From an uncultured Candidatus Saccharibacteria bacterium (lineage in GTDB: Bacteria; Patescibacteriota; Minisyncoccia; UBA6257; WO2-44-18), in contig CAZWVU010000003.1 of NCBI GenBank assembly GCA_964637575.1, forward strand, positions 65,586 to 129,585: a DNA stretch of 64,000 bases, written 5' to 3'. The notes below the pieces were generated by a model that worked only from the letters and a program-made list of their open reading frames with translations, did no database searches and was not told the DNA's origin. Below are positions 33,623 to 54,567 of this stretch, one piece after another. Within the stretch, counting starts at the first letter, position 1, and each line of letters starts with the position of its first letter. A program made the position numbers and the translations under genes.

Positions 33623-33694
33623 GCGTGTGTAGTTCAGTGGTAGAACGCTGTCCTGATAAGACAGAGGTCGAAGGTTCGATTCCTTCCACACGCA
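33623..33694 (+). tRNA. tRNA-Ile (anticodon GAT)
   Basis: Acceptor stem GCGTGTG/CACACGC, D-arm TAGTTCAGTGGTAGAAC, anticodon loop CTGATAA, T-loop GGTTCGATTCC. Confidence 0.85.
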
Positions 33695-33796
33695 CTTCTA
33701 AAATAGAATCGAAGCCCGCAGCTCAATTTCTAGCAGGAAATTGAGTGAGGGGCGGCCTGCGACCGAGGCGAGCGACGGCGAGCCGAGAGTTGTAGG

Positions 33797-33815
33797 CGAT
33801 TCCTTCCACACGCAC
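33797..33815 (+). repeat. 19-bp direct repeat of the tRNA-Ile 3' end (cgattccttccacacgcac)
   Basis: Exact copy of 33677-33695, located 120 bp downstream. Resembles an att scar. Confidence 0.6.
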
Positions 33816-33857
33816 CCTACCCCAAATTTATCTGTTTTTAAGCTCAAAAGCGGCCTA

Positions 33858-33885
33858 TTGACATTTTTTAATAGCATGGTAAGAT
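33858..33885 (+). promoter_or_regulatory. Sigma70-like promoter (TTGACA-N16-TAAGAT) for the 3D-domain gene
   Basis: Consensus -35 hexamer, 16-nt spacer, then a -10-like hexamer. Confidence 0.4.
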
Positions 33886-33933
33886 GTTGGCACATAAAAG
33901 ATCCCCAGATGCGGGGTTTTTTTATTACCCAAT

Positions 33934-34392
33934 ATGAATACATTATTGCAGACTCTGATCAACGGTGCCTTGTCGCTTTCCATCATCGCAAATATCGGAG
34001 CGATTGCCCCGATTGCGAAAGTGGACGCGCAGGCCGCGCCGGTAGCAATCGAGCAGGTGGCCGACACGTCGCTTACTGCGACCGCGCCGATGGACGAGGA
34101 GGTAACGCGTATGTCCGCGAAGATCACCGCCTATTCGTCCACGGAAGACCAGACCGACGATTCGCCGTTCATTACAGCGTCCGGCGCCCATGTGGCGGAT
34201 GGAATCGTGGCCTCGAATTTCCTGCCGCTCCATACCCACATCAAGATCCCGGCTTTGTTCGGGGAAAAAATCTTCGTGGTGGAGGATCGGATGGCCAAGC
34301 GGTTTTCCGACCGGGTGGATATCTGGATGCCGGACCGCACCAGCGCCTGGAAATTCGGTCTCCAGCACGCGGAAATCGTGGTGCTGAAGTAA
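33934..34392 (+). CDS. 3D-domain (MltA-like / YocH-like) cell-wall-associated protein
   Basis: C-terminal 3D domain with conserved Asp residues (ITAYSSTEDQTDDSPFITASGAHVADGIVA...FVVEDRM). N-terminal signal/anchor. Confidence 0.7.
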   Translation: MNTLLQTLINGALSLSIIANIGAIAPIAKVDAQAAPVAIEQVADTSLTATAPMDEEVTRMSAKITAYSSTEDQTDDSPFITASGAHVADGIVASNFLPLHTHIKIPALFGEKIFVVEDRMAKRFSDRVDIWMPDRTSAWKFGLQHAEIVVLK

Positions 34393-34407
34393 AAGTCCCA
34401 GTCAAAA

Positions 34408-34434
34408 AACTCCCGTCTTGAGCGGGAGTTTTGT
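34408..34434 (+). terminator. Rho-independent terminator
   Basis: aactcccg / cgggagtt stem followed by a T-run. Confidence 0.65.
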
Positions 34435-35566: not shown

Positions 35567-36976
35567 TTATCGCTGAATGAGAATGTCGCCGACGGCTATT
35601 TCGGTCTGGGAATCAAATATCAGGCCGCACTGATTTCCCGCGGCCACGGACTTCACGTCGCGCTTCATGCTCTGGAGATTGATTATTTTCCCGCTGCCCG
35701 TTACCGTGCCTTTGCGTTCCACTTCCAGCACCGCGTTGTTGGAAATTACCCCTTCCTTCACCTCGCCGCCGATAACCTGTTTGGTTCCTTTTTTGCTGAA
35801 CGCCGCGAGAATTTCCAGCGTGCCAAGCGCTACCGCTTTGCCGAGCGATGCCAGCGTTTCTTCCACGGTTTTTACCAGATCATAAATAATTTCCGACTGG
35901 ACGATTTTGATATTCTGGGCGCGGGCCAGCGTTTCCGCCGCCTTGCCGGCCTCCGTGCGGAATCCGATAATAAACGACTTGGTGGACGCCGCGAGCTTCA
36001 CGTCGCCGTCGGTAATATCGCCCACGCTCTCTTCGACAATTTCAATATGCTGATCCTTTTTCAAGGGGAGCGTCTTTACTACCTGGTGCAGGGCTTCCAG
36101 CGAACCGCTGACATCCGCCTTTAAGATTAAATTCACCGTTCCTTCCCGGGCTTCCTTTGAAATGATTTTGCGCGGAGCTTTGGTAATCGTGGCGATTTCT
36201 GCGTGCGGCCCGACGTGAAATTCGTCGCCCGCTTTCGGTACGGAATCGAATCCCATCACAATTGCCGGAGACGAGGGGAGAAGCTGGTCAACTTTTTTAC
36301 CGAGAAAATTTTCGAGAATTTTCACTTTTCCGGAAACGGCGCCGGCCGCGATCTCGTCGCCCTGCTTCAGGGTGCCGTCAGTGACAATCAGCGTCGCCAT
36401 GACGCCGCGCCGGCGGTCCATCTTGGACTCAAGCACAATGCCGCTCGCGTGATGCGCCGGATCATAATCGAGGTGTTCCAGTTCGGCGGCGAGCAGGATC
36501 AGGTCCAGGAGATCGTTCACGCCGTCGCCGGTAAGTGCTGAGACCGGCTGGTTGCTGACGTTGCCGCCGTAGCCTTCAAGAAATACGCCGGCCTGCATCA
36601 GCTCGTTTTTTACTTTGGAGGTATCGGGAACCTTATCAATCTTATTGATGGCGACGATGAACGGTGTCTTGGTTTCCTGGATAATCCGGAGCGCTTCTTT
36701 GGTCTGCGGCTGGACGCCATCGTCAGCGGCGACGATCAGGATGGCGATGTCGGCGATGCCGGCGCCGCGCTCTTTGATTTTGGAAAACGCCTCATGGCCG
36801 GGAGTGTCTATAAAAGTAACGCGCTGGCCATTATGTTCTATTTCATATGCTCCGACGGATTGGGTAATCCCGCCGGCTTCTTTGGCGGCGACATTGGCTT
36901 TGCGGATGTAGTCGAGAAGGGTAGTTTTCCCGTGGTCCACACTGCCCATTATTACTACAATTGGAGAGCGCTTCAT
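35567..36976 (-). CDS. infB: Translation initiation factor IF-2 (short, G-domain to C-terminus only)
   Basis: GTPase G1 motif ([12 protein letters not shown]), G3 motif (DTPGHEAF) and G4 motif (NKID). Start at MKRSPIVV with a GGAG Shine-Dalgarno. The TTG at 37012 is an alternative start. Confidence 0.85.
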
Positions 36977-37022
36977 GCTCCAAATTGTGCCAGAAAATTG
37001 AGATTTGGGCAAATAAATCTTA

Positions 37023-37057
37023 AATTTTAAAGTTTAAATTTGAAATTTAAAATGAAT
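37023..37057 (-). repeat. 35-bp AT-rich element, copy 2 of 2 (reverse orientation)
   Basis: Reverse complement is identical to 7391-7425. Lies in the infB leader. Confidence 0.7.
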
Positions 37058-37138
37058 GTTTAATGCTTAAATTTTTTAAACATTACGTCATTTAAAATTG
37101 ATTAAAAATTAAAAATTTTAAATTGGTATAATGAACCT

Positions 37139-38023
37139 ATGCCCGATATCAACAAGCTTCTTAAGGACTACCTGGACTATCTGGAAATCGACAAAAACCG
37201 TTCGCCGAAGACGCGGCAGAATTACGAACGTTACCTCAACGCATTCCTTTCTCATCAAAAGATCAAACAATTGAAGGATTTGACGCTGGACACAATCAAT
37301 AATTTCCGGCTGGCCATGGCGCGCGAGAAAGATATCAAGAAAGTTACCCAGTCGTATTACGTGATCGCCATCCGCAACTTTCTGAAGTACCTCATCAAAA
37401 AAGATTATGACGTGGTGGCGCCGGATAAAATCGAATTGCCGAAGATCGCCCAGCGGCAGATTGAACTTGTGGAATTCAGCGATCTGGACCGGCTCCTTGC
37501 CGCGCCTGATTTGGGCACGCTCCGCGGAATGCGCGACAAAGCTATTCTGGAACTATTCTTTTCCACCGGACTCCGCCTCTCCGAACTCTGCTCGCTCAAT
37601 CGTTATCTGAATTTTGATAAAGGCGAGCTGACTGTCCGGGGAAAAGGGGAAAAACTGCGGCTGGTGTTCATTTCCGACGGCGCCAAAAAAGCGCTCAAAC
37701 AATATCTCGACAAGCGTCCCGACACCCACGAGCACCTTTTTATCAGCCTGGATAAAAGCGACAAGGTGATAGGCAAGATCACGCCGCGCGCCGTCCAGCG
37801 CCTGGTTTCCTACTACGCGCAAAAAGCCGGCATTACGCGGCGGCTGACGCCGCACGGCCTGCGCCATCTTTTCGCGACCGACTTACTGATGAACGGCGCC
37901 GACTTGCGTTCGGTCCAGGAACTGCTTGGCCACGCCAACGTCGCGACCACGCAGGTCTACACGCACCTCACTAACAAGCACCTCAAAGAAGTCCACGACG
38001 CTTTTCACGCCAAGCGCCGTTAG
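37139..38023 (+). CDS. Tyrosine site-specific recombinase, XerC/XerD family
   Basis: Catalytic R..HxxR..Y region (LRHLFATDLL...LLGHANVATTQVYTHL). Confidence 0.8.
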   Translation: MPDINKLLKDYLDYLEIDKNRSPKTRQNYERYLNAFLSHQKIKQLKDLTLDTINNFRLAMAREKDIKKVTQSYYVIAIRNFLKYLIKKDYDVVAPDKIELPKIAQRQIELVEFSDLDRLLAAPDLGTLRGMRDKAILELFFSTGLRLSELCSLNRYLNFDKGELTVRGKGEKLRLVFISDGAKKALKQYLDKRPDTHEHLFISLDKSDKVIGKITPRAVQRLVSYYAQKAGITRRLTPHGLRHLFATDLLMNGADLRSVQELLGHANVATTQVYTHLTNKHLKEVHDAFHAKRR

Positions 38024-39552: not shown

Positions 39553-39567
39553 TCCACTATTATACTG

Positions 39568-39649
39568 TGCCGAGGGTGGGATTTGAACCCACACGCCTTG
39601 CGGCGCCAGCTCCTAAAGCTGGTGCGTCTGCCAATTCCGCCACCTCGGC
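39568..39649 (-). tRNA. tRNA-Leu (anticodon TAG)
   Basis: Acceptor stem GCCGAGG/CCTCGGC, anticodon loop TTTAGGA, long variable arm, T-loop GGTTCAAATCC. Confidence 0.8.
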
Positions 39650-39894
39650 ATTTTAAACAGCTCGGCTTCGCCTCGATCAAAAAACTGTCGAGGTGTCGGC
39701 CCTGGGCGCTTTTGCGCCCGCTTTCGTTTCGCTCAAGCCCACGAGAGCATACCATCAAGCCCGCTCGAGCGGGCTATCCAGAGGATATCCACAAGTCATT
39801 CACAAAATCGGGAAGCTCCTGAATGACCGGATGATACTATTATACGTAGCTCTTCGCAATAATTCGACAGGCTCATTACGAGAGGAGGAAGAAC

Positions 39895-40395
39895 GTGAAA
39901 TCGAATATTTCAGAAATAATCGAAGGCCAGCGGAGCCGGGAGACGCGACTGGCAGGTATAGTGTTCAAGTATTGCCCGGACCTGGTGCTTCATTCGCGGG
40001 TCGGGAGGGGACAGGCGCGAACCTTCGTGCCGCGGTTGAGATTCGATCGTTCGCGGCGGTTCGGCTGGTTTTTCCGGCTTTTCACCGGGCGCATCTCCAG
40101 TCCCGCCCTCGCGATTACGGGAAACATCCGTTCAGCGTTGGACATGAGCCGGGAATGGATTCCCATCGAAATTCACTGCTACGACATGGGATTTCTGAAT
40201 TCCGTGCTGTGCGTTGTGGTTGCCTATCGGAATGAAACCGGCTGTCCCGCGCGCGTAATCGAGGAACCGCTGGCGGATGATTCGCGCTGGAAGCCGGCGA
40301 TCCGCGTCCTGCTCGCCATCGCCGCGATGAGCGCGATCCTGATCGGCGTGAGACTCCTTTCCATGTCGTTCTTCAAAAATCTTTTCAGCTTCTGA
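39895..40395 (+). CDS. Hypothetical protein (166 aa), C-terminal TM helix
   Basis: GTG start with an AGGAGG Shine-Dalgarno 7 nt upstream. Followed by a terminator. Confidence 0.4.
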   Translation: MKSNISEIIEGQRSRETRLAGIVFKYCPDLVLHSRVGRGQARTFVPRLRFDRSRRFGWFFRLFTGRISSPALAITGNIRSALDMSREWIPIEIHCYDMGFLNSVLCVVVAYRNETGCPARVIEEPLADDSRWKPAIRVLLAIAAMSAILIGVRLLSMSFFKNLFSF

Positions 40396-47100: not shown

Positions 47101-49573
47101 CAATTCCGGCGACTTTGTCGCCGGGTTCCAGCGTCATGACGCGCACGCCCTGGGTGGCGCGGCTGGCGAGGCGGATCGTGGCGAGCTTGGTGCGGATGAT
47201 CTGTCCTTTCGCGGAGAGGGCGAGCACTTCCTCCTCGGCATCCACCACCGACGCGGCGACGAGTATGCCGGTCTTGGAGGTGATCGCGGCCGTCTTGATG
47301 CCGGATCCGCCGCGGCCCTGGACTTTATATTGCGTGAGCGGCGTCTGCTTGCCGTAGCCATTGGCCATCACGACGAGAAGCCGGGCATTTTTCAATCCTT
47401 TCGGGATCAGATCCATTGACGCCACCTGGTCCTTACCCTTGAGACGGATGGCGCGGACACCCGCGGCGGTGCGGCCCATGGTGCGGACTTTGCCTTCCTG
47501 AAAACGGATGGACTGGCCCTGCTCAGTGGTCACGATGATGTCGTCGCCGCCGGATGAGAGCCGCACCCAGTTCAACTGGTCGCCCTTCTTGAGGCCGATG
47601 GCGATGATGCCGTTGCGGCGGACGTTGCCGAAATCTTTGAGCGAGGTCTTTTTCACAAGGCCGTTTCTGGTGACCATCGTCAGATTGCCGTCGCTCGCTT
47701 TTTCATAGGTGATCATGGCGCTGATCTTTTCCTCAGTCGGGACTTCCAGGAAATTATGGATCGGCTTGCCTTTGGATGTGCGGGTGCCGGCGGGAATTTC
47801 GTAGACCTTCGTCTGGAAAACCCGGCCGCGGTCGGTGAAGAAGAGGACGTTGTCGTGCGTGTTGGCCGCCATGAAGTGCATCAGGAAATCATCCTCGTTG
47901 ACGTCGGAACCGATCAGGCCTTTGCCGCCGCGGCCCTGGGTCTTGAACGACGCCGGCGGGACGCGCTTGATGTAGCCGCCCTGCGACAACGTAATAATTG
48001 TTTCTTCCTGCGGGATCAGGTCTTCTTCCCTGAACTCACCGAGGCCGCTGGCCACGACTTTCGTGCGCCGTTCGCTCTTGAACTTCTCTTTCAGACCGGC
48101 AACCTCGTCCTTGATCACTTTCAAAATCTTGGCCGGGCTTTTGAGAAGCGCCGTCAACTCGGCGATAATCTGCTGTTTTTCCTTCAGTTCGTTTTCTATC
48201 TTTTCTCTCTCTAAATTCGCGAGCGTTTGAAGCTTCATTTCCAGAATCGCCTCGGTCTGGCGTTCGGAGAACTTGAAGTTCTTGATCAAATTCTGCTTGG
48301 CGTCGTCTCGGTCCTTGGACTTCTTAATCGTCGCGATCACCTTGTCTATAATGGAAAGCGCCTTGGAGAGGCCCATCAGGATGTGGGCGCGCTCTTCGGC
48401 TTTCTTGAGATCATACTGGGCGCGGCGGCGGACGATCTCGTTGCGGTGTTCCAGATACGCTTCCAGCACGTCCTTGATGGACATGACCTCCGGCTGGAGG
48501 CCGTTCCGGAGCGCGATCATATTCATGTTGAAATTCTTCTGGAGATCCGTGTATTGATAGAGCTGGTTGAGTACTTTCTGAGGCGTGGCAGTGGATTTGA
48601 GTTCGATGATGATGCTGATGCCGTTTTTGTCGGATTCATCTCGGACGTCGCGGATGCCTTCGATTTTCTTGTCAGTCACGAGTTCCGCGATTTTGATGAT
48701 CAGTTCGGACTTGTTGACCTGGTAGGGGATTTCGCTGATTTCAATATAATACTCCTCCTTGGAAGCGCCTTTTTTCTCCTTGATCTCGGCAAGGCCGCGG
48801 GTGGTGATGGTGCCATGGCCGGAGACGTAGGCCTCCACGATGGCTTTCTTGTCATAAATGATGCCGCCGGTCGGGAAATCCGGGCCTTTCACGAATTCCA
48901 TGAGGTCGTGCGTGGTGGCCTTCGGATTGTCGGCGAGATGAAGGATCGCGTCGGCGACTTCGCCGAGGTTGTGCGGCGGGATGCTGGTGGCCATGCCGAC
49001 GGCGATGCCGACAGCGCCGTTCAAAAGCAGGTTGGGGAGTTTGGCCGGCATGACGCGCGGCTCCTGGCGGGTGCCGTCGTAGTTGGGGATCCAGTTTACT
49101 GTTTCCTTATCAATATCTTCCAGCAGTTCCTCGGCGATCTTGGCGAGGCGGGCTTCGGTGTAGCGGTAGGCGGCGGCGGAGTCGCCGTCAATGGAGCCGA
49201 AGTTTCCCTGGCCTTCCACGAGGGGATAGCGGAGCGAAAAATCCTGCGCCATGCGGACGAGGGCGTCATAGACGGCCATGTCGCCGTGCGGATGGTATTT
49301 GCCGAGCACGTCGCCGATGACGGTGGCGGCTTTGCGGAATTTGGCGCCGTGGGTGAGCCCGGCTTCCCACATCGTCCAGAGGATGCGGCGGTGCACCGGC
49401 TTCATGCCGTCGCGCACGTCCGGCAGGGCGCGGCTGACGATGACCGACATCGCGTAATCCAGATACGACTCCTGAAGTTCCGTGCCGATCTCGCGGTCTT
49501 CAACATTCGCCCGCGGTATTACCGCCTTTTCTTCGCCCTCGTTCTTCTTATTTTCTTCTTTCTTTTTTGCCAT
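47090..49573 (-). CDS. gyrA: DNA gyrase subunit A
   Basis: N-terminal catalytic region ([25 protein letters not shown]) and C-terminal beta-pinwheel repeats. Full length, 827 aa. Confidence 0.95.
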
Positions 49574-49575
49574 GG

Positions 49576-49938
49576 TTACCTTAATTTCGTCGGGGGAATT
49601 GCCGGCAATCCCTCCAGTGTAAAGTTCTGGTCCTGATTCTCAATCACGATGTCGTTATGTTCGGCGACTTTGCTCGCGACCACCCCCTGCACTTTGTCGG
49701 CGATGATTTTCAAACCGGCGGCGAAGACCGAGAAAAATCCCGGCGTCTGGGGCTGGGCGTTGGCGGCCACTTCTCCCGTATCCGCCTGCGCCGTCTGGGC
49801 AAGCGAGGGGATAGTAACGCGCACGTAGACCGTCCAGAGTCCGACGACGACGATCATGGAAACCGCGCTGAAAGCCGCCAGCCAGAGTTTTTTGGTGCGC
49901 TCGTCGGAGTTTTGAATTTTGGCGATAAAGGTTCTCAT
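49576..49938 (-). CDS. Membrane-anchored hypothetical protein (120 aa), co-oriented with gyrA
   Basis: Single TM helix. Stop lies 2 nt from the gyrA start. Confidence 0.45.
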
Positions 49939-50193
49939 TTACCCCGTTAGATAGTTTTTTAACCGATTCTTTATATATCGTTTACCCCAAGCAGTTTTCA
50001 GATATTTTTCGCGATGGGTAGCGTCCTGCTGATGGCCAGACGCTTCATAATATACCAGTTTGACGGGTAAACGATCTTTCGTTGAAGCGACCTTACCTTC
50101 GTTATGAAGTTTTAATCTGTTGTTAAGGTCGCTGGTATAACCAGTGTAGAATTGACCATCTTTCTTACTTTGCAAGATATACGTGTAATACAT
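49939..50193 (-). CDS. GIY-YIG nuclease-superfamily small protein (UPF0213/YhbQ-like)
   Basis: N-terminal YYTYILQS...GQFYTGYTSDLNNRLKLHN is the GIY-YIG motif. AT-rich (about 38% GC) compared with its neighbours. Confidence 0.7.
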   Translation of the reverse strand: MYYTYILQSKKDGQFYTGYTSDLNNRLKLHNEGKVASTKDRLPVKLVYYEASGHQQDATHREKYLKTAWGKRYIKNRLKNYLTG

Positions 50194-50212
50194 TGTATCT
50201 AACGGGGTGAAC

Positions 50213-50758
50213 TTATGCTTTTAATACCACCACTTTCATTCCCGGTGTAATATCTTTTTTCTTGATGACCAGTTTTTCCTCCGGTTCGGCTTTCTTCTCT
50301 ACTTCCTTCAAAAACGCCGCCACCTCCGCCGGCTTTATATATGAAGGGATGACGATCTTGGGCTGGATCTGCTTGATCACTTTGGCGCTGATGCCCGCCG
50401 GCGCGAAGAGAATGTCCACTTCGCCGAGCTTGTCCAAAAGCCCCGGCTCCATCTCCTGCATCGCCTCGCCCATAAACACCAGCCGCATCTCCTCGGTTTT
50501 TACCAAGTAAGTTGTGGCCAGCCCGCCTGAGGCGGGAAATCCCCCCATTTCCACTTCGGAAATTTCATATTCGCCCGGTCCGTAAATATGCCCCGCTTCC
50601 GGCGGCCACGTCTTTAGTACGGAGTTCTTAGTTCCAAGTTCTAAGTTCTGCGTATGCAGGGTTATGTCGCCTTTGAAACGCGGCAGGGGATCAGTGATGA
50701 TACTCACTTTTCCTGATTGGATCTTAAAGCACCGCTCTCCTGCGTAGGTGATTACCAT
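50213..50758 (-). CDS. Metallo-beta-lactamase-fold hydrolase-like protein (tentative)
   Basis: Size and sequence pattern resemble short MBL-fold proteins. No clear HxHxDH motif, so confidence is low. Confidence 0.4.
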   Translation of the reverse strand: MVITYAGERCFKIQSGKVSIITDPLPRFKGDITLHTQNLELGTKNSVLKTWPPEAGHIYGPGEYEISEVEMGGFPASGGLATTYLVKTEEMRLVFMGEAMQEMEPGLLDKLGEVDILFAPAGISAKVIKQIQPKIVIPSYIKPAEVAAFLKEVEKKAEPEEKLVIKKKDITPGMKVVVLKA

Positions 50759-50840
50759 AAGAATACTTTCTATTTTACACTACTTTCTGACCAAAACAAA
50801 GTATTTATGCTACTTGAAAAACATCTGCTTAAGAGTGATA

Positions 50841-51551
50841 ATGAGCGAGAAATCAATGAATTTTACTTGCCCGTACTGTAATAGGCCAACGACAATAACC
50901 GGCCCCAATTCTTTTTCTGATTGGCGACATATCGTTATAGCAAAATCAACGCTTGGGAATGCCGGGTTATTTTCTCGAGCTATTACTTGCCCCAATAAAG
51001 AATGTAATAAGCTTTGGCTTCATATTGGGCTTTATGAGGCAGATTATGCAGGACGCCGAGTTGAATATAACCGCCTGAATCAGTGGCAGCTTTTGCCAGA
51101 ATCGGAAGCGAGGGTTTTACCAGAGTATATACCCGCACCAATACAGGAGGACTATTATGAAGCATGCAGAATCCGTGATTTAAGCCCGAAGGCATCCGCC
51201 ACACTCGCGAGACGTTGCCTACAGGGCATGATCCGTGATTTTTGGAAGATTAAAAAGGCGCGACTTAAGGAAGAAGTTGATGCGCTGGAAGAAAAAGTGG
51301 ATGCGGATACTTGGTCGAGTATAGATGCAGTCAGAAGTGTCGGTAACATTGGCGCGCACATGGAAAGAGACATTGATGTCATCGTTGCGGTTGAGCCACA
51401 AGAGGCGCAGCTACTAATTGGTCTTATCGAGCAATTGATTGACGATTGGTATGTCGCCCGAGATTCTAGGCACAAGCGCACAGAAGAATTAAAAAAGTTG
51501 GCAATGGATAAGCAAGAACAAAGAAGTGGAGCTGAAAAAAAGGAAGAATAA
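50841..51551 (+). CDS. Zinc-ribbon + DUF4145-like helical domain protein
   Basis: N-terminal CPYCN...CPNKEC zinc ribbon. C-terminal segment (ACRIRDLSPKASATLARRCLQGMIRDF...RSVGNIGAHMERD) resembles DUF4145. TATAAT overlaps the start codon, so the mRNA is probably leaderless. Confidence 0.5.
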   Translation: MSEKSMNFTCPYCNRPTTITGPNSFSDWRHIVIAKSTLGNAGLFSRAITCPNKECNKLWLHIGLYEADYAGRRVEYNRLNQWQLLPESEARVLPEYIPAPIQEDYYEACRIRDLSPKASATLARRCLQGMIRDFWKIKKARLKEEVDALEEKVDADTWSSIDAVRSVGNIGAHMERDIDVIVAVEPQEAQLLIGLIEQLIDDWYVARDSRHKRTEELKKLAMDKQEQRSGAEKKEE

Positions 51552-51555
51552 AATT

Positions 51556-51822
51556 ATGCGCACAAGTACAAAAATATTAATCGGAGTAGTTGCTTTTCTT
51601 GCAGTATTATTTGTATTTACCCGGTATGCCCCTAACTCTCCAAAAACTGATCCAGAAGCAATAAAGAAAACGCTCCAAATATTAATCAACGGCAACGACG
51701 CCAAAATACAAGAACTCCAGGATGAGATCAAGAAAACCAGAGCTTCAAGTGACTGCCTGAAGTCAGCGATTGTGTCATATAAGGACCAAGGCTTTCAGGA
51801 AATTTTAAGCAGTTGCCAATAA
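51556..51822 (+). CDS. Small signal-anchored protein (88 aa)
   Basis: AAGGAAG Shine-Dalgarno. One TM helix followed by a coiled-coil-like tail. Confidence 0.4.
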   Translation: MRTSTKILIGVVAFLAVLFVFTRYAPNSPKTDPEAIKKTLQILINGNDAKIQELQDEIKKTRASSDCLKSAIVSYKDQGFQEILSSCQ

Positions 51823-51915
51823 CTTACTCAAAGAATAAGGCATTGCACTGGTTTGGCATTAATTAAATAAAAAATCCCCCTTGCGGGTATTTTTATTTTC
51901 GGCGAAGATGGCTGG

Positions 51916-53070
51916 ATGGCCGATGAATTACCAGAGGGGCTGAAGGGAATGAAAAAAGTTAAATCATCTGACGGTGATTTTGTCGCCAAGAAAAAGCCCG
52001 GAAAAATATATGTTTCTGACTTCTCTGCAAAAGAGGGGAAGTATTTTAGCGTGATTGCGGATGAAGGAGGTGGCAAGGTTCTGCATGATAGCGCCCGACT
52101 TCAGATCCGAGCTTGTTTTATCACGAAGCTCGGACAGGTGAACGAATTGAAGATTCAACGATTTGAAAAAAAGAAAGGAGAAGTCGTTCCGGGCAGTGTA
52201 GTCGAAATACGTATTGACACCGCTAATTTAGCCGTGCTCCGCGAGTTTGTCGACTTTATCCAGCGAGCCGACCTAGCATCGGTTGCTGCCGGGCGGCTTA
52301 GTTTTGACGCCGACCTGAAGCTAGAAAAAGGATTACAGGCCAAGCTGGTGGCTCTTGCGCAGGACGAGGGCGGGAGGGCAATGCTCCTTAAACTTTTCGA
52401 AGATGGATATCTCACATCTGGCCTCGATGTTTCCGATCTTATCAAAAAAGGATTATCGCATGAGAAGCTTGAGCAAAAATTTGCCATCCTTACAAAATTT
52501 GAAAAACTAATTAAAACCCCCGATATCAGCGAGTTAAAGATTCAGGAATTTCTCACTTCGGCGCCATGGATTTTTGGTCCTGAATATACTGCTGTTGATA
52601 TTCGCGATGCCGGTTCATCCGGAGTACCGGATCGGCGCTTGAAAAGAATCGACGGGCTGAGCGATATCTTAGAGTTCAAGCTTCCGTCCGCTGAAGTTCT
52701 GAGAGCTGATAAAATGGGCAGGCAATACATTGCGCCCGCGGCGGCTGAGGCGCTCGGTCAATTAATGGCCTATCTTGAATACTATACGAGCGAATACCAG
52801 GAGCTAAAAAAAGACGTGGATGGGAAGGAGGTGCTAGAAGAGTTTCGTGGTCGTTACTACAAGCCAAAGGGAATCCTTTTAATTGGTCGGAGAAGCGCCG
52901 CTTCAGGAGTTGATGGCGTGAAGGCGACGACCGACGTTCAACCGAAGCACCTGCGGCGCATGATGTCATTCTTTCACGGCATCGAGGTTCTCACATATGA
53001 CGATTTAATTGAGCGCGCTCGGAATGGATTGGTTGCAATATCGGGCGATGGCGCATCTACGTGGGTGTAG
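51916..53070 (+). CDS. Predicted PD-(D/E)xK-superfamily nuclease; Shedu/DUF4263-like, tentative
   Basis: C-terminal region ...FGPEYTAVDIRD...RIDGLSDILEFKLP fits a D...(hydrophobic)3-E-x-K restriction-endonuclease-fold motif. N-terminal region is not assignable. Confidence 0.45.
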   Translation: MADELPEGLKGMKKVKSSDGDFVAKKKPGKIYVSDFSAKEGKYFSVIADEGGGKVLHDSARLQIRACFITKLGQVNELKIQRFEKKKGEVVPGSVVEIRIDTANLAVLREFVDFIQRADLASVAAGRLSFDADLKLEKGLQAKLVALAQDEGGRAMLLKLFEDGYLTSGLDVSDLIKKGLSHEKLEQKFAILTKFEKLIKTPDISELKIQEFLTSAPWIFGPEYTAVDIRDAGSSGVPDRRLKRIDGLSDILEFKLPSAEVLRADKMGRQYIAPAAAEALGQLMAYLEYYTSEYQELKKDVDGKEVLEEFRGRYYKPKGILLIGRRSAASGVDGVKATTDVQPKHLRRMMSFFHGIEVLTYDDLIERARNGLVAISGDGASTWV

Positions 53071-53192
53071 TTTTGACTTCCTATTCACCTTTTGCTACTA
53101 TTGAACGCAAGTTGTTTCTCGCGGGAGAACTCCAATTATAAACCAATCGGCTTCGCGCGCTGCGCGGGCCAACAAATAAATTACTTATCCGG

Positions 53193-54284
53193 ATGACGAC
53201 TCCAGTTAATAAGACGAATTCACAGCTTGGGAATATTTTAAAAGCCGGCACCAATCTGGTTACGATCCTCAAGCAGGGTGACCTGGTGGAAGCGAAATTA
53301 ATGAAGCGCGCGCAGAAAGCGGTGTATTTTGATCTCGGCGCGCTCGGCACCGGCGTGGTCTACGGCTACGAACTGATGAACGCGCAGGACGCGCTCAAAG
53401 ATCTCAAGATCGGCGACAGCACGACGGTCAAAGTCGTGGATCCGGAAAATGCCGACGGCTACGTGGAACTTTCGCTCCGCGAAGTGGGCAAGCAGAAGGC
53501 CTGGCAGGAGGTGAAAGAGCTGAAGGAAAAAGGCGAGGTCATTTCCATTAAAGTGGGCGGCGCCAACAGCGGCGGCCTGATGACCGAGGTGAATAATCTG
53601 AAAGCGTTCCTGCCGATCTCCCAGCTTTCCAGCTCGCATTTCCCGAAAGTGGATGACGGCAACAAGGACAAGATCACCGAAGAACTCAAGAAGCTCATCG
53701 GCACGGAATTGAAAGTGAAGATCATTGACGTCAATCCGCGCAACTACAAGCTGATCCTCTCCGAGCGCGAGAGCGTGAGCGAGAACGTCAAGGAATTGCT
53801 CACCAAATACAAGGCGGGCGACGTCGTGGACGGCACGATCTCCGGCGTGGCTGATTTCGGCGCCTTCTTCCAGTTTGCCGACAACCCGGCGATTGAAGGC
53901 CTCATCCACATTTCCGAGTTGAGCCACAAGCTTATTGAGAATCCGAAGGATGTGGTGAAAGTCGGCGACGCGGTGAAGGCGAAGATCACCGAGATCAAGG
54001 ACGGCCGCGTGTCGCTTTCGTTGAAAGCGCTCCAGCCGAACCCGTGGGATACGGTGGAATCGCGCTACAAGGCGGGCGAGACCTACAAGGGAACCGTGCT
54101 CCGCTACAATCCGTTCGGCGCCTTCATCGGCCTTGATTCCGAGATCCAGGGATTGATCCACGTTTCCGAATTTGGCGGCATTGAAGAGATGAAAAAGGCG
54201 ATAGAAGTCGGCAAGCAGTACAACTTCACGATTGACTCCATCAAACCGGCGGAGAAGCGCATCATTCTCAAAATGAAGAAATAA
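53193..54284 (+). CDS. rpsA: 30S ribosomal protein S1 (four S1 domains, short form)
   Basis: Four repeated S1/OB motifs (G.V.G.V..I..FGAFV...). Confidence 0.75.
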
Positions 54285-54300
54285 AGGTATACTCAAAACC

Positions 54301-54567
54301 ATGCTAACTTCCAGAAAGAAAAAAACAGTTATCAAAGAACACGGCGTACATGAAACCGATACCGGCTCGGCGGCGGTTCAGATCGGTTTGCTGTCCAAGC
54401 AGATCGAGGAACTGACTGGCCATCTCAAGAAGCACCAGAAGGATAACCACTCCCGCCGCGGATTGCTTAAGATGGTCGGCAAGCGCCGCCGCCTGCTGGT
54501 CTATCTCGAGAAGACCGACAACAAGACCTACAACTCGCTCGTCAAGAAACTCGGGCTGAAAAAGTAG
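54301..54567 (+). CDS. rpsO: 30S ribosomal protein S15
   Basis: Characteristic S15 sequence ([36 protein letters not shown]). Confidence 0.9.

Follow-up and report, generated by a model that had tools for sequence, protein, structure and literature searches.

A probable horizontally acquired insert with RAZR-like and Shedu genes upstream of rpsA in an uncultured, ultra-small bacterium

The gap between an MBL-fold gene and rpsA (ribosomal protein S1) in the window, by which we mean the whole stretch of 64,000 nucleotides that was analysed, is very probably an insertion hotspot, occupied here by a horizontally acquired insert of 2.3 kb that codes for two independent single-gene anti-phage systems. 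The locus upstream of rpsA is a genuine but ordinary defence islet. Its gene combination, which a sequence-only reading had matched to no named system and proposed as a possible new defence system, resolves into two assignable and separately named single-gene systems, RAZR (PD-T7-4) and Shedu. The host is an uncultured, ultra-small bacterium with a Parcubacteria-type (CPR/Patescibacteria) genome. All of the ORFs named in that reading were found where it had placed them (49939-50193 on the minus strand; 50841-51551, 51556-51822 and 51916-53070 on the plus strand), and the features of the region are as follows.

49937-50212, minus strand: mobile cassette of about 275 bp with the 84-aa GIY-YIG gene (49939-50193) and terminal inverted repeats at 49938-49953 and 50196-50211
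50213-50758, minus strand: MBL-fold (Lactamase_B_3) gene, 181 aa, left neighbour of the insert (Pfam PF13483, 8e-12)
50759-53072, no strand assigned: acquired insert (RAZR-like gene, orphan ORF and SduA), from composition and alignment with empty sites
50814-50842, plus strand: promoter-like site, TTGAAA-17-GATAAT, overlapping ATG 50841 of the RAZR-like ORF
50841-51551, plus strand: RAZR-like (PD-T7-4 family) gene, 236 aa, with a Cys4 zinc ribbon and DUF4145/HEPN, from Pfam, PADLOC and PDB matches
51556-51822, plus strand: orphan ORF of 88 aa, 4 nt downstream of the stop codon of the RAZR-like gene, with a single hydrophobic helix at the N-terminus
51916-53070, plus strand: putative Shedu nuclease SduA, type 1, 384 aa (DUF4263 PD-(D/E)xK)
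53073-53101, plus strand: rpsA promoter-like site, TTGACT-17-TACTAT with upstream TG, right boundary of the insert

In windows of 500 bp, the GC content of the segment falls to 0.39-0.45, against 0.55-0.64 in the flanks, so that its description as AT-rich holds beyond the local background; the insert (50759-53072) has a GC content of 0.449, compared with 0.542 for the whole window. The four AT-rich genes (GIY-YIG, RAZR-like, the 88-aa ORF and SduA) have GC3 values of 0.38-0.49, with 0.40 for the GIY-YIG gene and 0.38 for the 88-aa ORF, whereas core genes have 0.63-0.80, and the GC3 of SduA is the minimum among the 31 long ORFs of the window (mean 0.682, s.d. 0.067). The 181-aa MBL-fold gene, which the sequence-only reading had skipped, shows a host-like GC3 of 0.63 and lies between TM120/gyrA and rpsA in about 30 relatives. 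It is a core gene and not an accessory one, and the segment is therefore not one uniform accessory block, as had been supposed. The DUF4145 (RAZR-like) gene is indeed divergently transcribed, but the neighbour concerned is this MBL gene (50213-50758) and not the GIY-YIG gene.

The gene order gyrA–TM120–MBL–rpsA is kept in about 30 related genomes, and the MBL–rpsA gap of these relatives is mostly 60-150 bp in length: in L011, whose S1 protein is 85% identical, 68 bp lie between the MBL and rpsA start codons, and about 25 others have gaps of 60-300 bp. The block is absent from this site in most relatives, and the proposal of a defence locus within acquired, AT-rich DNA that is flanked by core genes is borne out. 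By alignment with the empty sites, the insert begins on the left immediately beyond the MBL start codon and ends on the right at the rpsA promoter; the promoter-like site there aligns with the equivalent sequence, directly 5' of rpsA, in L011, L028 and L037, where the gap is empty. Neither flanking direct repeats nor an integrase were found at the insert, and no mobility gene or repeat accounts for its arrival. A few relatives hold different cargo in the same gap, namely a MerR-HTH protein and DUF4325 in L013, and a LexA-like protein, a type II methyltransferase and an SduA 70% identical to that of the window in L005, and the gap is thus regarded as an insertion hotspot and a recurrent cargo site in this lineage. 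The block is 100% identical at the protein level in four independent assemblies from four sequencing runs.

From its sequence, the 384-aa protein is assigned to the Shedu nucleases (SduA), none of the four active-site motifs being absent, and the earlier guess of a PD-(D/E)xK/Shedu protein holds. The Pfam profile PF14082 (DUF4263 / SduA_C) matches residues 205-365 (E-value = 7.1e-13; 49.5 bits against a cut-off of 27), and 17 SduA profiles of PADLOC match the protein, the best of them (3.7e-21) over residues 16-369. Motifs I-IV are represented by E206, D239, E253/K255 and Q282, all invariant in 58 aligned homologues (the equivalents in B. cereus Shedu being E204, D249, E264/K266 and Q295), and the D250-I-L-E253-F-K255 signature is present in the ORF. 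The protein has the Shedu nuclease fold, and is laid out as a beta-rich N-terminal domain (about residues 30-117), a helical linker (about 138-200) and the DUF4263 PD-(D/E)xK nuclease (205-375). The N-terminal region forms a domain of about 135 aa (five strands and a helix) ahead of the linker, and no Pfam family matched this domain. In its nuclease domain and motifs I-IV the protein resembles the Shedu of B. cereus B4264 (PDB 8ti8, 8ti9), the three parts have the same proportions as in that protein, and, as with Shedu, the system consists of one gene placed in a variable island; no conserved partner gene was recognized in the SduA homologue contexts sampled. However, it is only 15-20% identical to the solved Shedu proteins (B. 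cereus 8ti8/8ti9; E. coli 8ps4), and differs from known Shedu in belonging to a CPR-centred subfamily of about 115 clusters. By homology, the SduA tetramer would be kept inactive by its N-terminal domains until an infection cue sensed by them (free DNA ends in the case of E. coli SduA) frees it, and the released enzyme would then nick or cut the invading DNA.

The 70%-identical SduA of L005 lies at the same site and has diverged to an extent like that of the flanking core proteins (63-93%), which could suggest long residence and would fit an insert of inert cargo, with decaying or silent genes, or an SduA that serves as a housekeeping DNA repair protein beside rpsA. Such an explanation seems very improbable, however, as every catalytic and zinc-binding residue is preserved without variation, the four samples carry the same untruncated ORFs, and no other long ORF has so low a GC3 as SduA. 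SduA is, moreover, missing in L011 and L013, which are closer relatives (85-86% identity in S1), as well as in about 25 further ones, and is thus not a housekeeping protein; an acquired anti-phage function is preferred.

Judged by its profile matches, the 236-aa protein is homologous to RAZR, a HEPN RNase that is activated by phage and was earlier named PD-T7-4. The DUF4145 domain guessed earlier for 50841-51551 was recovered by Pfam (PF13643, E-value = 3.4e-11); the PADLOC PD-T7-4 profile PDLC04109 (E-value = 2.8e-12) covers nearly the full length of the protein (residues 5-203, aligned to positions 11-181 of the 211 in the profile); and PDB entry 9y9c (E. coli RAZR, 24 chains) was matched with E-values of 7.9e-5 by the single sequence and 8.7e-8 by a profile. 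RAZR, the ring-activated zinc-finger RNase of E. coli UMB1727, assembles as a 24-mer ring around ring-shaped phage proteins and cleaves ssRNA non-specifically, leading to abortive infection (Zhang et al., Nature 2026, PMC13017515; PDB 9y9c). The R-x7-H catalytic pair aligns residue for residue between the two proteins, R165 and H173 of the window protein corresponding to the catalytic R146 and H154 in 9y9c, and is kept in 115 (R165) and 116 (H173) of 116 homologues. The zinc-ribbon cysteines lie in CPYC (residues 10-13) and CPNKEC (residues 50-55); C10, C13, C50 and C55 are invariant in 50 homologues, and each is found in 112-116 of the 116. In the alignment, FNCPHCG of E. coli RAZR is the counterpart of the first CxxC, and beyond this motif no significant alignment of the zinc-ribbon region with that protein was found.

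Conservation over the 116 homologues is 0.49 in the zinc-ribbon domain, 0.76 in the linker and 0.80 in the HEPN domain, and variation in the zinc ribbon together with conservation of the linker and HEPN is the pattern reported for trigger-specific RAZR (PMC13017515). In an AF2 model, the beta-rich N-terminal domain is confident (pLDDT above 90); the HEPN half has a pLDDT of about 40-55, and a fold search with it gave no match. By homology, the variable zinc-ribbon domain would bind a ring-shaped phage protein, for example portal, upon which the RAZR-like protein would form a large ring and complete its HEPN active sites; the assembled protein would then cut cellular RNA non-specifically, so that translation stops and the infection is aborted. 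The description of a nuclease with sensor-like accessory genes is thus superseded, the DUF4145 protein being, by the same homology, apparently both sensor and effector (HEPN RNase) itself.

The promoter-like site TTGAAA-17-GATAAT is the best consensus match of the region (10/12), and its -10 box does overlap ATG 50841, as had been pointed out. Eight such sites occur in the region, against 4.8 +/- 2.5 in shuffles, and the site is therefore a lead only. Because of the overlap, a transcript from it would begin downstream of that ATG. The closest homologues begin with 'MN-FTCPYC', corresponding to the second ATG at 50856, which is probably the true start of the gene and gives a protein of 231 aa; a leaderless transcript is plausible only with translation from this second ATG.

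The window protein is like E. coli RAZR in that a linker and DUF4145/HEPN follow an N-terminal Cys4 zinc ribbon, in which the position of the first CxxC is the same, and is of similar size (231-236 aa versus 219 aa). It differs in that significant similarity extends over the HEPN domain only (E-value = 8.7e-8; about 30% identity, as estimated by eye), in an N-terminal domain about 18 residues longer, in an extra charged C-terminal helix (residues 206-236), in its host, a CPR bacterium instead of E. coli, and in that its close relatives often lie within type I or type III restriction-modification (R-M) operons. As no such arrangement with type I R-M genes is described for E. coli RAZR, the clade may be triggered differently.

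The gene is enclosed by hsdS and hsdR in seven of the 23 closest homologue loci, the spacing ranging from -26 to +6 nt, and an eighth (L084) has the same type I R-M order with a gap of 1.3 kb; one homologue adjoins a type III R-M pair, and many others are solo genes. The PrrC anticodon nuclease is a latent RNase within the EcoprrI type Ic R-M locus, and the relatives of the window protein likewise present a putative latent RNase gene between hsdS and hsdR, apparently co-translated, although the N-domain of PrrC is ABC-ATPase-like and its nuclease domain is organised differently, and the window copy is outside any R-M operon. These arrangements, and an earlier cataloguing of DUF4145 as 'in operon with R-M', would fit a clade that is mainly an R-M partner, with a latent HEPN RNase checked by, or guarding, type I R-M in a PrrC-like manner; in that case the solo window copy would represent either a remnant or a derivative that stands alone, with a trigger other than a phage ring protein. 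We consider this rather unlikely: there are no R-M genes near the window copy, which has a promoter-like site of its own, many homologues are solo, and the contrast between the zinc ribbon and the linker and HEPN is the signature already described for trigger-specific RAZR. A RAZR-like response to phage is preferred for the window copy. Partnership with R-M and a phage-ring trigger are not mutually exclusive. Restriction and RNase-based abortive infection could be linked through this compact form of RAZR, the relatives of which are built into type I R-M operons.

By analogy with RAZR and Shedu, each of which is experimentally sufficient as a single gene, the RAZR-like protein (acting on RNA) and SduA (acting on DNA) would work in parallel and not as one machine. 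No SduA was detected at any of 80 other RAZR-like loci (422 kb; tblastn and profile HMM), which speaks against the DUF4145 protein as an accessory of SduA, and the sampled contexts of SduA homologues were without a RAZR gene. The genes of the segment lie side by side and have their AT-rich composition in common, and the 88-aa ORF begins 4 nt past the RAZR-like stop, so that co-translation of the two is possible. On these grounds the GIY-YIG, DUF4145, small membrane and PD-(D/E)xK genes could be taken together as one new multi-component system, the smaller ones being sensors or accessories. This is hardly credible in view of the 0/80 linkage and of the sufficiency of either gene alone; the closest SduA (70%, in L005 at the same site) has no RAZR, small ORF or GIY-YIG gene beside it, the core MBL gene lies between the GIY-YIG gene and the rest, the GIY-YIG cassette occupies another slot in L011, and the 88-aa ORF has no homologue. 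Two parallel systems are thus retained.

The strongest hydrophobic stretch of the 88-aa ORF is residues 7-25 (mean Kyte-Doolittle 2.3). The ORF matched itself alone among 1.84 billion cluster representatives, gave no match in Pfam, NCBIfam or PADLOC, and was not seen beside RAZR or SduA homologues in the other genomes examined. Being without relatives, this predicted ORF is linked by nothing to either system, and its inclusion as a small membrane component is withdrawn. Current concepts are unchanged by these findings; both RAZR, for which a mechanism has been available only since 2026, and Shedu are represented by large and well-conserved subfamilies in the CPR/Patescibacteria, organisms about whose phages and defence repertoires little is known.

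The GIY-YIG gene forms a selfish and independently mobile cassette of its own outside the insert, and its inclusion in the same block, across a core gene, falls away. The protein consists of a single domain (Pfam GIY-YIG, E-value = 2.3e-15, residues 1-68 of 84), and the terminal inverted repeat of the cassette is 16-17 nt long and 94% complementary. In L011, a copy with 80% identity lies in another slot, between the arms of the same repeat, and the similarity between the two cassettes stops exactly at the repeat ends; the repeat also brackets the GIY-YIG ORF in L063-L070, L151 and L152, and is conserved at AbiEi|AbiEii and other junctions. The junctions between same-strand genes that the cassette occupies differ from genome to genome. 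Within the 64-kb window, there is no amplification of the motif at other places. Single-domain GIY-YIG proteins that act as site-specific ssDNA nucleases are known as the Ssn family (CDD cd10448; Nat Commun 2025, PMC11893778). The cassette protein is like Ssn in its size (84-94 aa, under 150 aa) and in having a GIY-YIG domain only, and its gene is likewise flanked on both sides by a conserved inverted-repeat motif in an IS-like repeat-gene-repeat order; a second copy in L064 carries the motif as a complete hairpin. Whereas Ssn genes have a hairpin element on each side, the window cassette has two half-sites that are the arms of one inverted repeat, and, unlike in Ssn, one arm lies inside the coding sequence.

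It is possible, though doubtful, that this cassette of about 275 bp is an autonomous minimal mobile element, the sole gene of which encodes an 84-aa GIY-YIG nuclease as mobility enzyme. The nuclease would recognize its own terminal inverted-repeat motif, probably as ssDNA in an Ssn-like manner, and would drive insertion into short spacers of co-oriented genes, its stop abutting the next start (TAAATG). If so, a bacterial element more compact than all known insertion sequences would owe its mobility to a GIY-YIG nuclease. Tiny cassettes of this kind, with their conserved terminal repeats, could yield new site-specific ssDNA nucleases. An ssDNA fold closes the cassette (z = -4.5), and the nearest PDB relatives of its protein are UPF0213 proteins (1zg2, E-value = 2.7e-8).

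The AT-rich interval between gyrA and rpsA contains two known single-gene defence systems, a RAZR-like gene (zinc-ribbon/DUF4145) and a Shedu nuclease gene (SduA), placed next to each other in a lineage-specific hotspot. All of the ORFs that a sequence-only reading had placed in this interval were recovered at the same positions, and its label of a defence locus holds. The AT-richness that it had pointed out is also real: G+C in 500-bp windows falls to 0.39–0.45 within 50500-52250, versus 0.55–0.64 in gyrA and pnp. One gene had been missed, a 181-aa MBL-fold hydrolase (Pfam PF13483, 8e-12; hereafter MBL) lying between the GIY-YIG and DUF4145 genes.

Features of the interval, with G+C at third codon positions (GC3)
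49937-50212, minus strand: GIY-YIG cassette, gene of 84 aa; GC3 0.40
50213-50758, minus strand: MBL, 181 aa; GC3 0.63
50759-53072: insert, made up of the next three genes
50841-51551, plus strand: RAZR-like gene, 236 aa; GC3 0.41
51556-51822, plus strand: 88-aa ORF; GC3 0.38
51916-53070, plus strand: SduA, 384 aa; GC3 0.49
53073-53101: rpsA promoter, TTGACT-17-TACTAT
Other core genes: gyrA, GC3 0.78; TM120, 0.72; rpsA, 0.76; rpsO, 0.73; NYN, 0.72; pnp, 0.75

GC3 divides these genes into two clean classes, core and outliers; MBL belongs to the former, and the GIY-YIG gene and the three genes of the insert, which is foreign in composition, belong to the latter. Among the window's 31 long ORFs, whose GC3 averages 0.68 (sd 0.07), SduA has the lowest value. 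The whole block was found in independent assemblies of four sequencing runs (SRR8931202, SRR8931230, SRR8931233 and SRR8931234), with proteins 100% identical. No known RNA family was detected in 49000-54500 at E ≤ 1, and an NCBIfam search gave no match for the GIY-YIG, RAZR-like or SduA proteins. A PADLOC census of all 55 ORFs in the window found SduA and PD-T7-4. Matches to ShosA/PsyrA, QatD, DpdF, NYN, LmuA and RT-protease profiles were single and without partner genes, and were not counted as defence systems; housekeeping proteins related to these families, DprA or TatD for example, may account for them.

The DUF4145 domain proposed for the 236-aa protein was confirmed by Pfam (E = 3.4e-11), and the PADLOC profile PD-T7-4 covers nearly all of it (E = 2.8e-12). 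A 2026 Nature paper (PMC13017515) gave PD-T7-4 the new name RAZR, for ring-activated zinc-finger RNase. According to that paper, an N-terminal Cys4 zinc ribbon is followed by a C-terminal DUF4145 domain, a divergent HEPN RNase whose catalytic residues are R146 and H154; a 24-mer ring forms around phage proteins that are themselves ring-shaped, either a portal or a putative recombinase, and the assembled enzyme cleaves RNA non-specifically, resulting in abortive infection. E. coli RAZR (PDB 9y9c) was the sole significant PDB match (a single-sequence search gave E = 7.9e-5 and a family-profile search 8.7e-8). The first CxxC is at the same place in both proteins, and RSVGNIGAH of the window protein aligns with RIVGNQAVH of E. 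coli RAZR, which makes R165 the counterpart of R146 and H173 that of H154; R165, H173 and the four cysteines are essentially invariant in 116 homologues. Conservation in the same set is 0.80 in the HEPN domain, 0.76 in the linker and only 0.49 in the variable zinc-ribbon domain, a pattern that the RAZR authors also observed and linked to trigger specificity (PMC13017515). An impression that the zinc ribbon is unusually conserved in this clade was overturned once the more divergent homologues had been added. Because the AF2 model is confident in the zinc-ribbon half only and gave no Foldseek match in the PDB at E ≤ 0.001, the identity of this protein rests on sequence and profile evidence. By homology, its variable zinc-ribbon domain would serve as the sensor for a ring-shaped phage protein, and the RAZR-like protein would then oligomerise, whereupon the paired HEPN domains would cut cellular RNA and cause abortive infection.

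Since the closest homologues begin with MN-FTCPYC, the second ATG (50856) is probably the start of the RAZR-like protein. A promoter-like TTGAAA-17-GATAAT lies at 50814-50842, and with the start at 50856 the leader would be only about 6–8 nt; the earlier suggestion that this gene is leaderless thus seems reasonable in spirit but attached to the wrong ATG.

The 384-aa protein, previously predicted to be a PD-(D/E)xK nuclease reminiscent of Shedu, is indeed Shedu (Pfam SduA_C, 7.1e-13). Seventeen PADLOC SduA profiles match it, the best with E = 3.7e-21 over residues 16-369. The PD-(D/E)xK motifs of B. cereus Shedu are E204 (I), D249 (II), E264/K266 (III) and Q295 (IV) (Gu et al.), and the equivalents here, E206, D239, E253/K255 and Q282, are all invariant in 58 homologues. 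In the structural model, five strands and then a helix make up the beta-rich N-terminal domain (about residues 30-117), the linker at about 138-200 is helical, and the nuclease domain occupies 205-375; this is the type 1 layout, its proportions resemble those of B. cereus Shedu, and the fold is that of a Shedu nuclease. The N-terminal domain had no Pfam match. In published Shedu systems, the N-terminal domains hold the tetramer inactive and sense an infection cue, which for E. coli SduA is free DNA ends. By homology with these, SduA would be a tetrameric nuclease switched off by its N-terminal domains, which would detect an infection signal and release the enzyme to cut invading DNA.

The 88-aa ORF between the two genes has a single hydrophobic helix at its N-terminus. 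A search of 1.84 billion cluster representatives gave no homologue, and the ORF belongs to no Pfam, NCBIfam or PADLOC family, so it is an orphan. A putative intrinsic terminator in the spacer between this ORF and SduA (51865-51898) was rejected, as its fold energy is no better than that of shuffled sequences (z = +0.96) and the scan did not pick it up.

Neighbourhoods of rpsA were collected from one genome per species and the proteins of the window were mapped onto them (L numbers denote comparison loci from related genomes and metagenomes). The order ABC-binding protein, gyrA, TM120, MBL, rpsA is kept in about 30 MAGs of the Parcubacteria type, with labels of Harrison-, Colwell-, Lipton- or Jorgensenbacteria and relatives, and rpsO, NYN and pnp follow wherever the locus reaches that far. 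The spacing between MBL and rpsA is 60–150 bp in most relatives (68 bp in L011, which has an 85%-identical S1 protein), whereas it is 2.43 kb in the window; as the view of an accessory segment wedged between core genes would have it, the block is absent from this gap in most relatives. Alignment with empty sites puts the left edge of the insert just past the MBL start codon and the right edge exactly at the conserved rpsA promoter. No convincing direct repeats, integrase or tRNA were found at the boundaries, and a likeness of the left edge to the rpsA promoter region (alignment A1) is weak and, by eye, at chance level.

A few relatives carry other cargo in the same gap. In L013 (5782-6848), a 252-aa protein with a MerR-type HTH precedes a 96-aa DUF4325 (STAS-like) protein, and four others have unannotated ORFs of 0.75–0.9 kb. 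The 7.5-kb island of L005 (488-8001) encodes a LexA-like S24 peptidase, a type II N6/N4 methyltransferase (a 237-aa ORF overlapping it is possibly a restriction enzyme), several orphans and, directly upstream of rpsA, an SduA that is 70% identical to that of the window; DNA similarity between L005 and the window is limited to the SduA gene. Because the gene order is conserved in about 30 MAGs, the gap is short in most of them and other cargo occurs in a few, the MBL–rpsA gap is an insertion hotspot, and MBL itself is a core gene.

The sequence-only reading had suggested that the segment might be a new, unnamed multi-gene system. This was not supported by a metagenomic set of 80 RAZR-like loci (422 kb in total, with more than 2 kb downstream in 36 and more than 2 kb upstream in 28): none contains SduA (tblastn and profile HMM), and none has a gene related to the 88-aa ORF or to the GIY-YIG gene. 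SduA homologues, for their part, occupy other contexts, namely the L005 island and, in L006, a site beside an OLD-type TOPRIM ATPase and recombinases. The RAZR-like gene and SduA are thus two independent single-gene systems, not one. In L006 (5797-9152; likewise L007), a 54%-identical SduA comes directly after a 692-aa AAA/OLD-like TOPRIM protein resembling Gabija GajA or PARIS AriA, and the pair is flanked by two serine recombinases and a ParB-methyltransferase, surroundings that suggest a mobile defence island.

The commonest neighbours of RAZR-like genes are subunits of type I restriction-modification (R-M) systems. In seven loci (L073, 3160-9829; L082, 2568-9731; L088, 1979-9734; and L074, L080, L086 and L093), the RAZR-like gene follows hsdS and precedes hsdR, separated from its neighbours by only -26 to +6 nt, and hsdM is upstream in all three that were scanned (L073, L082 and L088); L084 has the same order, but with a 1.3-kb gap before hsdR. 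The homologues between hsdS and hsdR are 64–72% identical to the window protein. Their position recalls that of PrrC in the EcoprrI locus. The S10 ribosomal-protein operon of L008 (8001-13554; likewise L009, L010 and L076) has a defence islet inserted between rpsJ and rplC. It comprises a RAZR-like gene, one for a T5orf172/MUG113 protein, and a type III R-M pair (N6_N4 methyltransferase and ResIII). The association of DUF4145 with R-M systems and its fusion to zinc ribbons were already catalogued by Anantharaman et al. (2013), and the hsdS–RAZR-like–hsdR arrangement is not discussed in the RAZR paper (PMC13017515).

The GIY-YIG cassette is separate from the RAZR-like/SduA pair and is the most unusual item in the interval. 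Its single-domain gene (84–88 aa) is exactly enclosed by a 16–17-nt inverted repeat, (A)TTTACCCCGTTAGATA ... TATCTAACGGGGTGAA(T), with the core CCCGTTAGATA / TATCTAACGGG; one arm codes for the final Y-L-T-G-stop, and the other lies 0–2 nt ahead of the ATG. The window and L011 copies are similar in DNA sequence up to the outer boundaries of the repeat and no farther. Three more same-strand junctions with the same repeat were found in other family members, giving five different junctions in all.

Junctions of the GIY-YIG cassette (copies of about 275 bp in the first four lines)
Window 49937-50212: TM120/MBL
L011 8731-9006: gyrA/TM120; 80% identical, same repeat
L063-L070 and L151 (~900-1190): AbiEi/AbiEii; two GIY gene variants, with 83% and 81% identity to the window copy
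L152 (~2480-2760): upstream of a glyoxalase-like gene
L153-L157: Lactamase_B gene/trmO; 5' arm decayed

In the window, L011 and L152, the stop of the cassette touches the start of the next gene (TAAATG). No target-site duplication is consistent across the five contexts. When the cassette is folded as ssDNA, the two arms close it entirely (z = -4.5). L064, L068 and L070 have a second, 58%-identical copy about 750 bp downstream, and in that of L064 the motif is a full hairpin. The family gave 3,227 matches, of which the best 120 are all 75–87% identical and 84–98 aa long, mostly from Patescibacteria and many on very short contigs. The nearest solved relatives are UPF0213 proteins. The Ssn family consists of single-domain GIY-YIG site-specific ssDNA nucleases whose cognate hairpin repeats flank the genes in an IS-like layout (PMC11893778); it is the closest described analogue of the cassette, whose repeat-gene-repeat layout is similar. 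Single- or double-stranded DNA carrying TATCTAACGGGG is a candidate substrate of the 84-aa protein.

Elsewhere in the window, two low-GC3 ORFs without Pfam matches (33741-34421, 0.45; 39693-40235, 0.49) lie directly downstream of tRNA-Ile (33623-33695) and tRNA-Leu (39567-39649), respectively, and are possibly small genes acquired at tRNA sites. G+C in 1-kb windows dips to 0.45–0.46 near 36500-37750. A 294-aa tyrosine recombinase adjoining infB (37139-38023; Phage_integrase and SAM-like N-terminal domains) has a host-like GC3 of 0.69 and is probably of the XerC/D type, not an island integrase. In L028 (968-4471; Parcubacteria GW2011_GWA2_47_8b), gyrA matches as two separate segments with about 1 kb between them, which suggests an intein or other insertion within gyrA, or an assembly problem.
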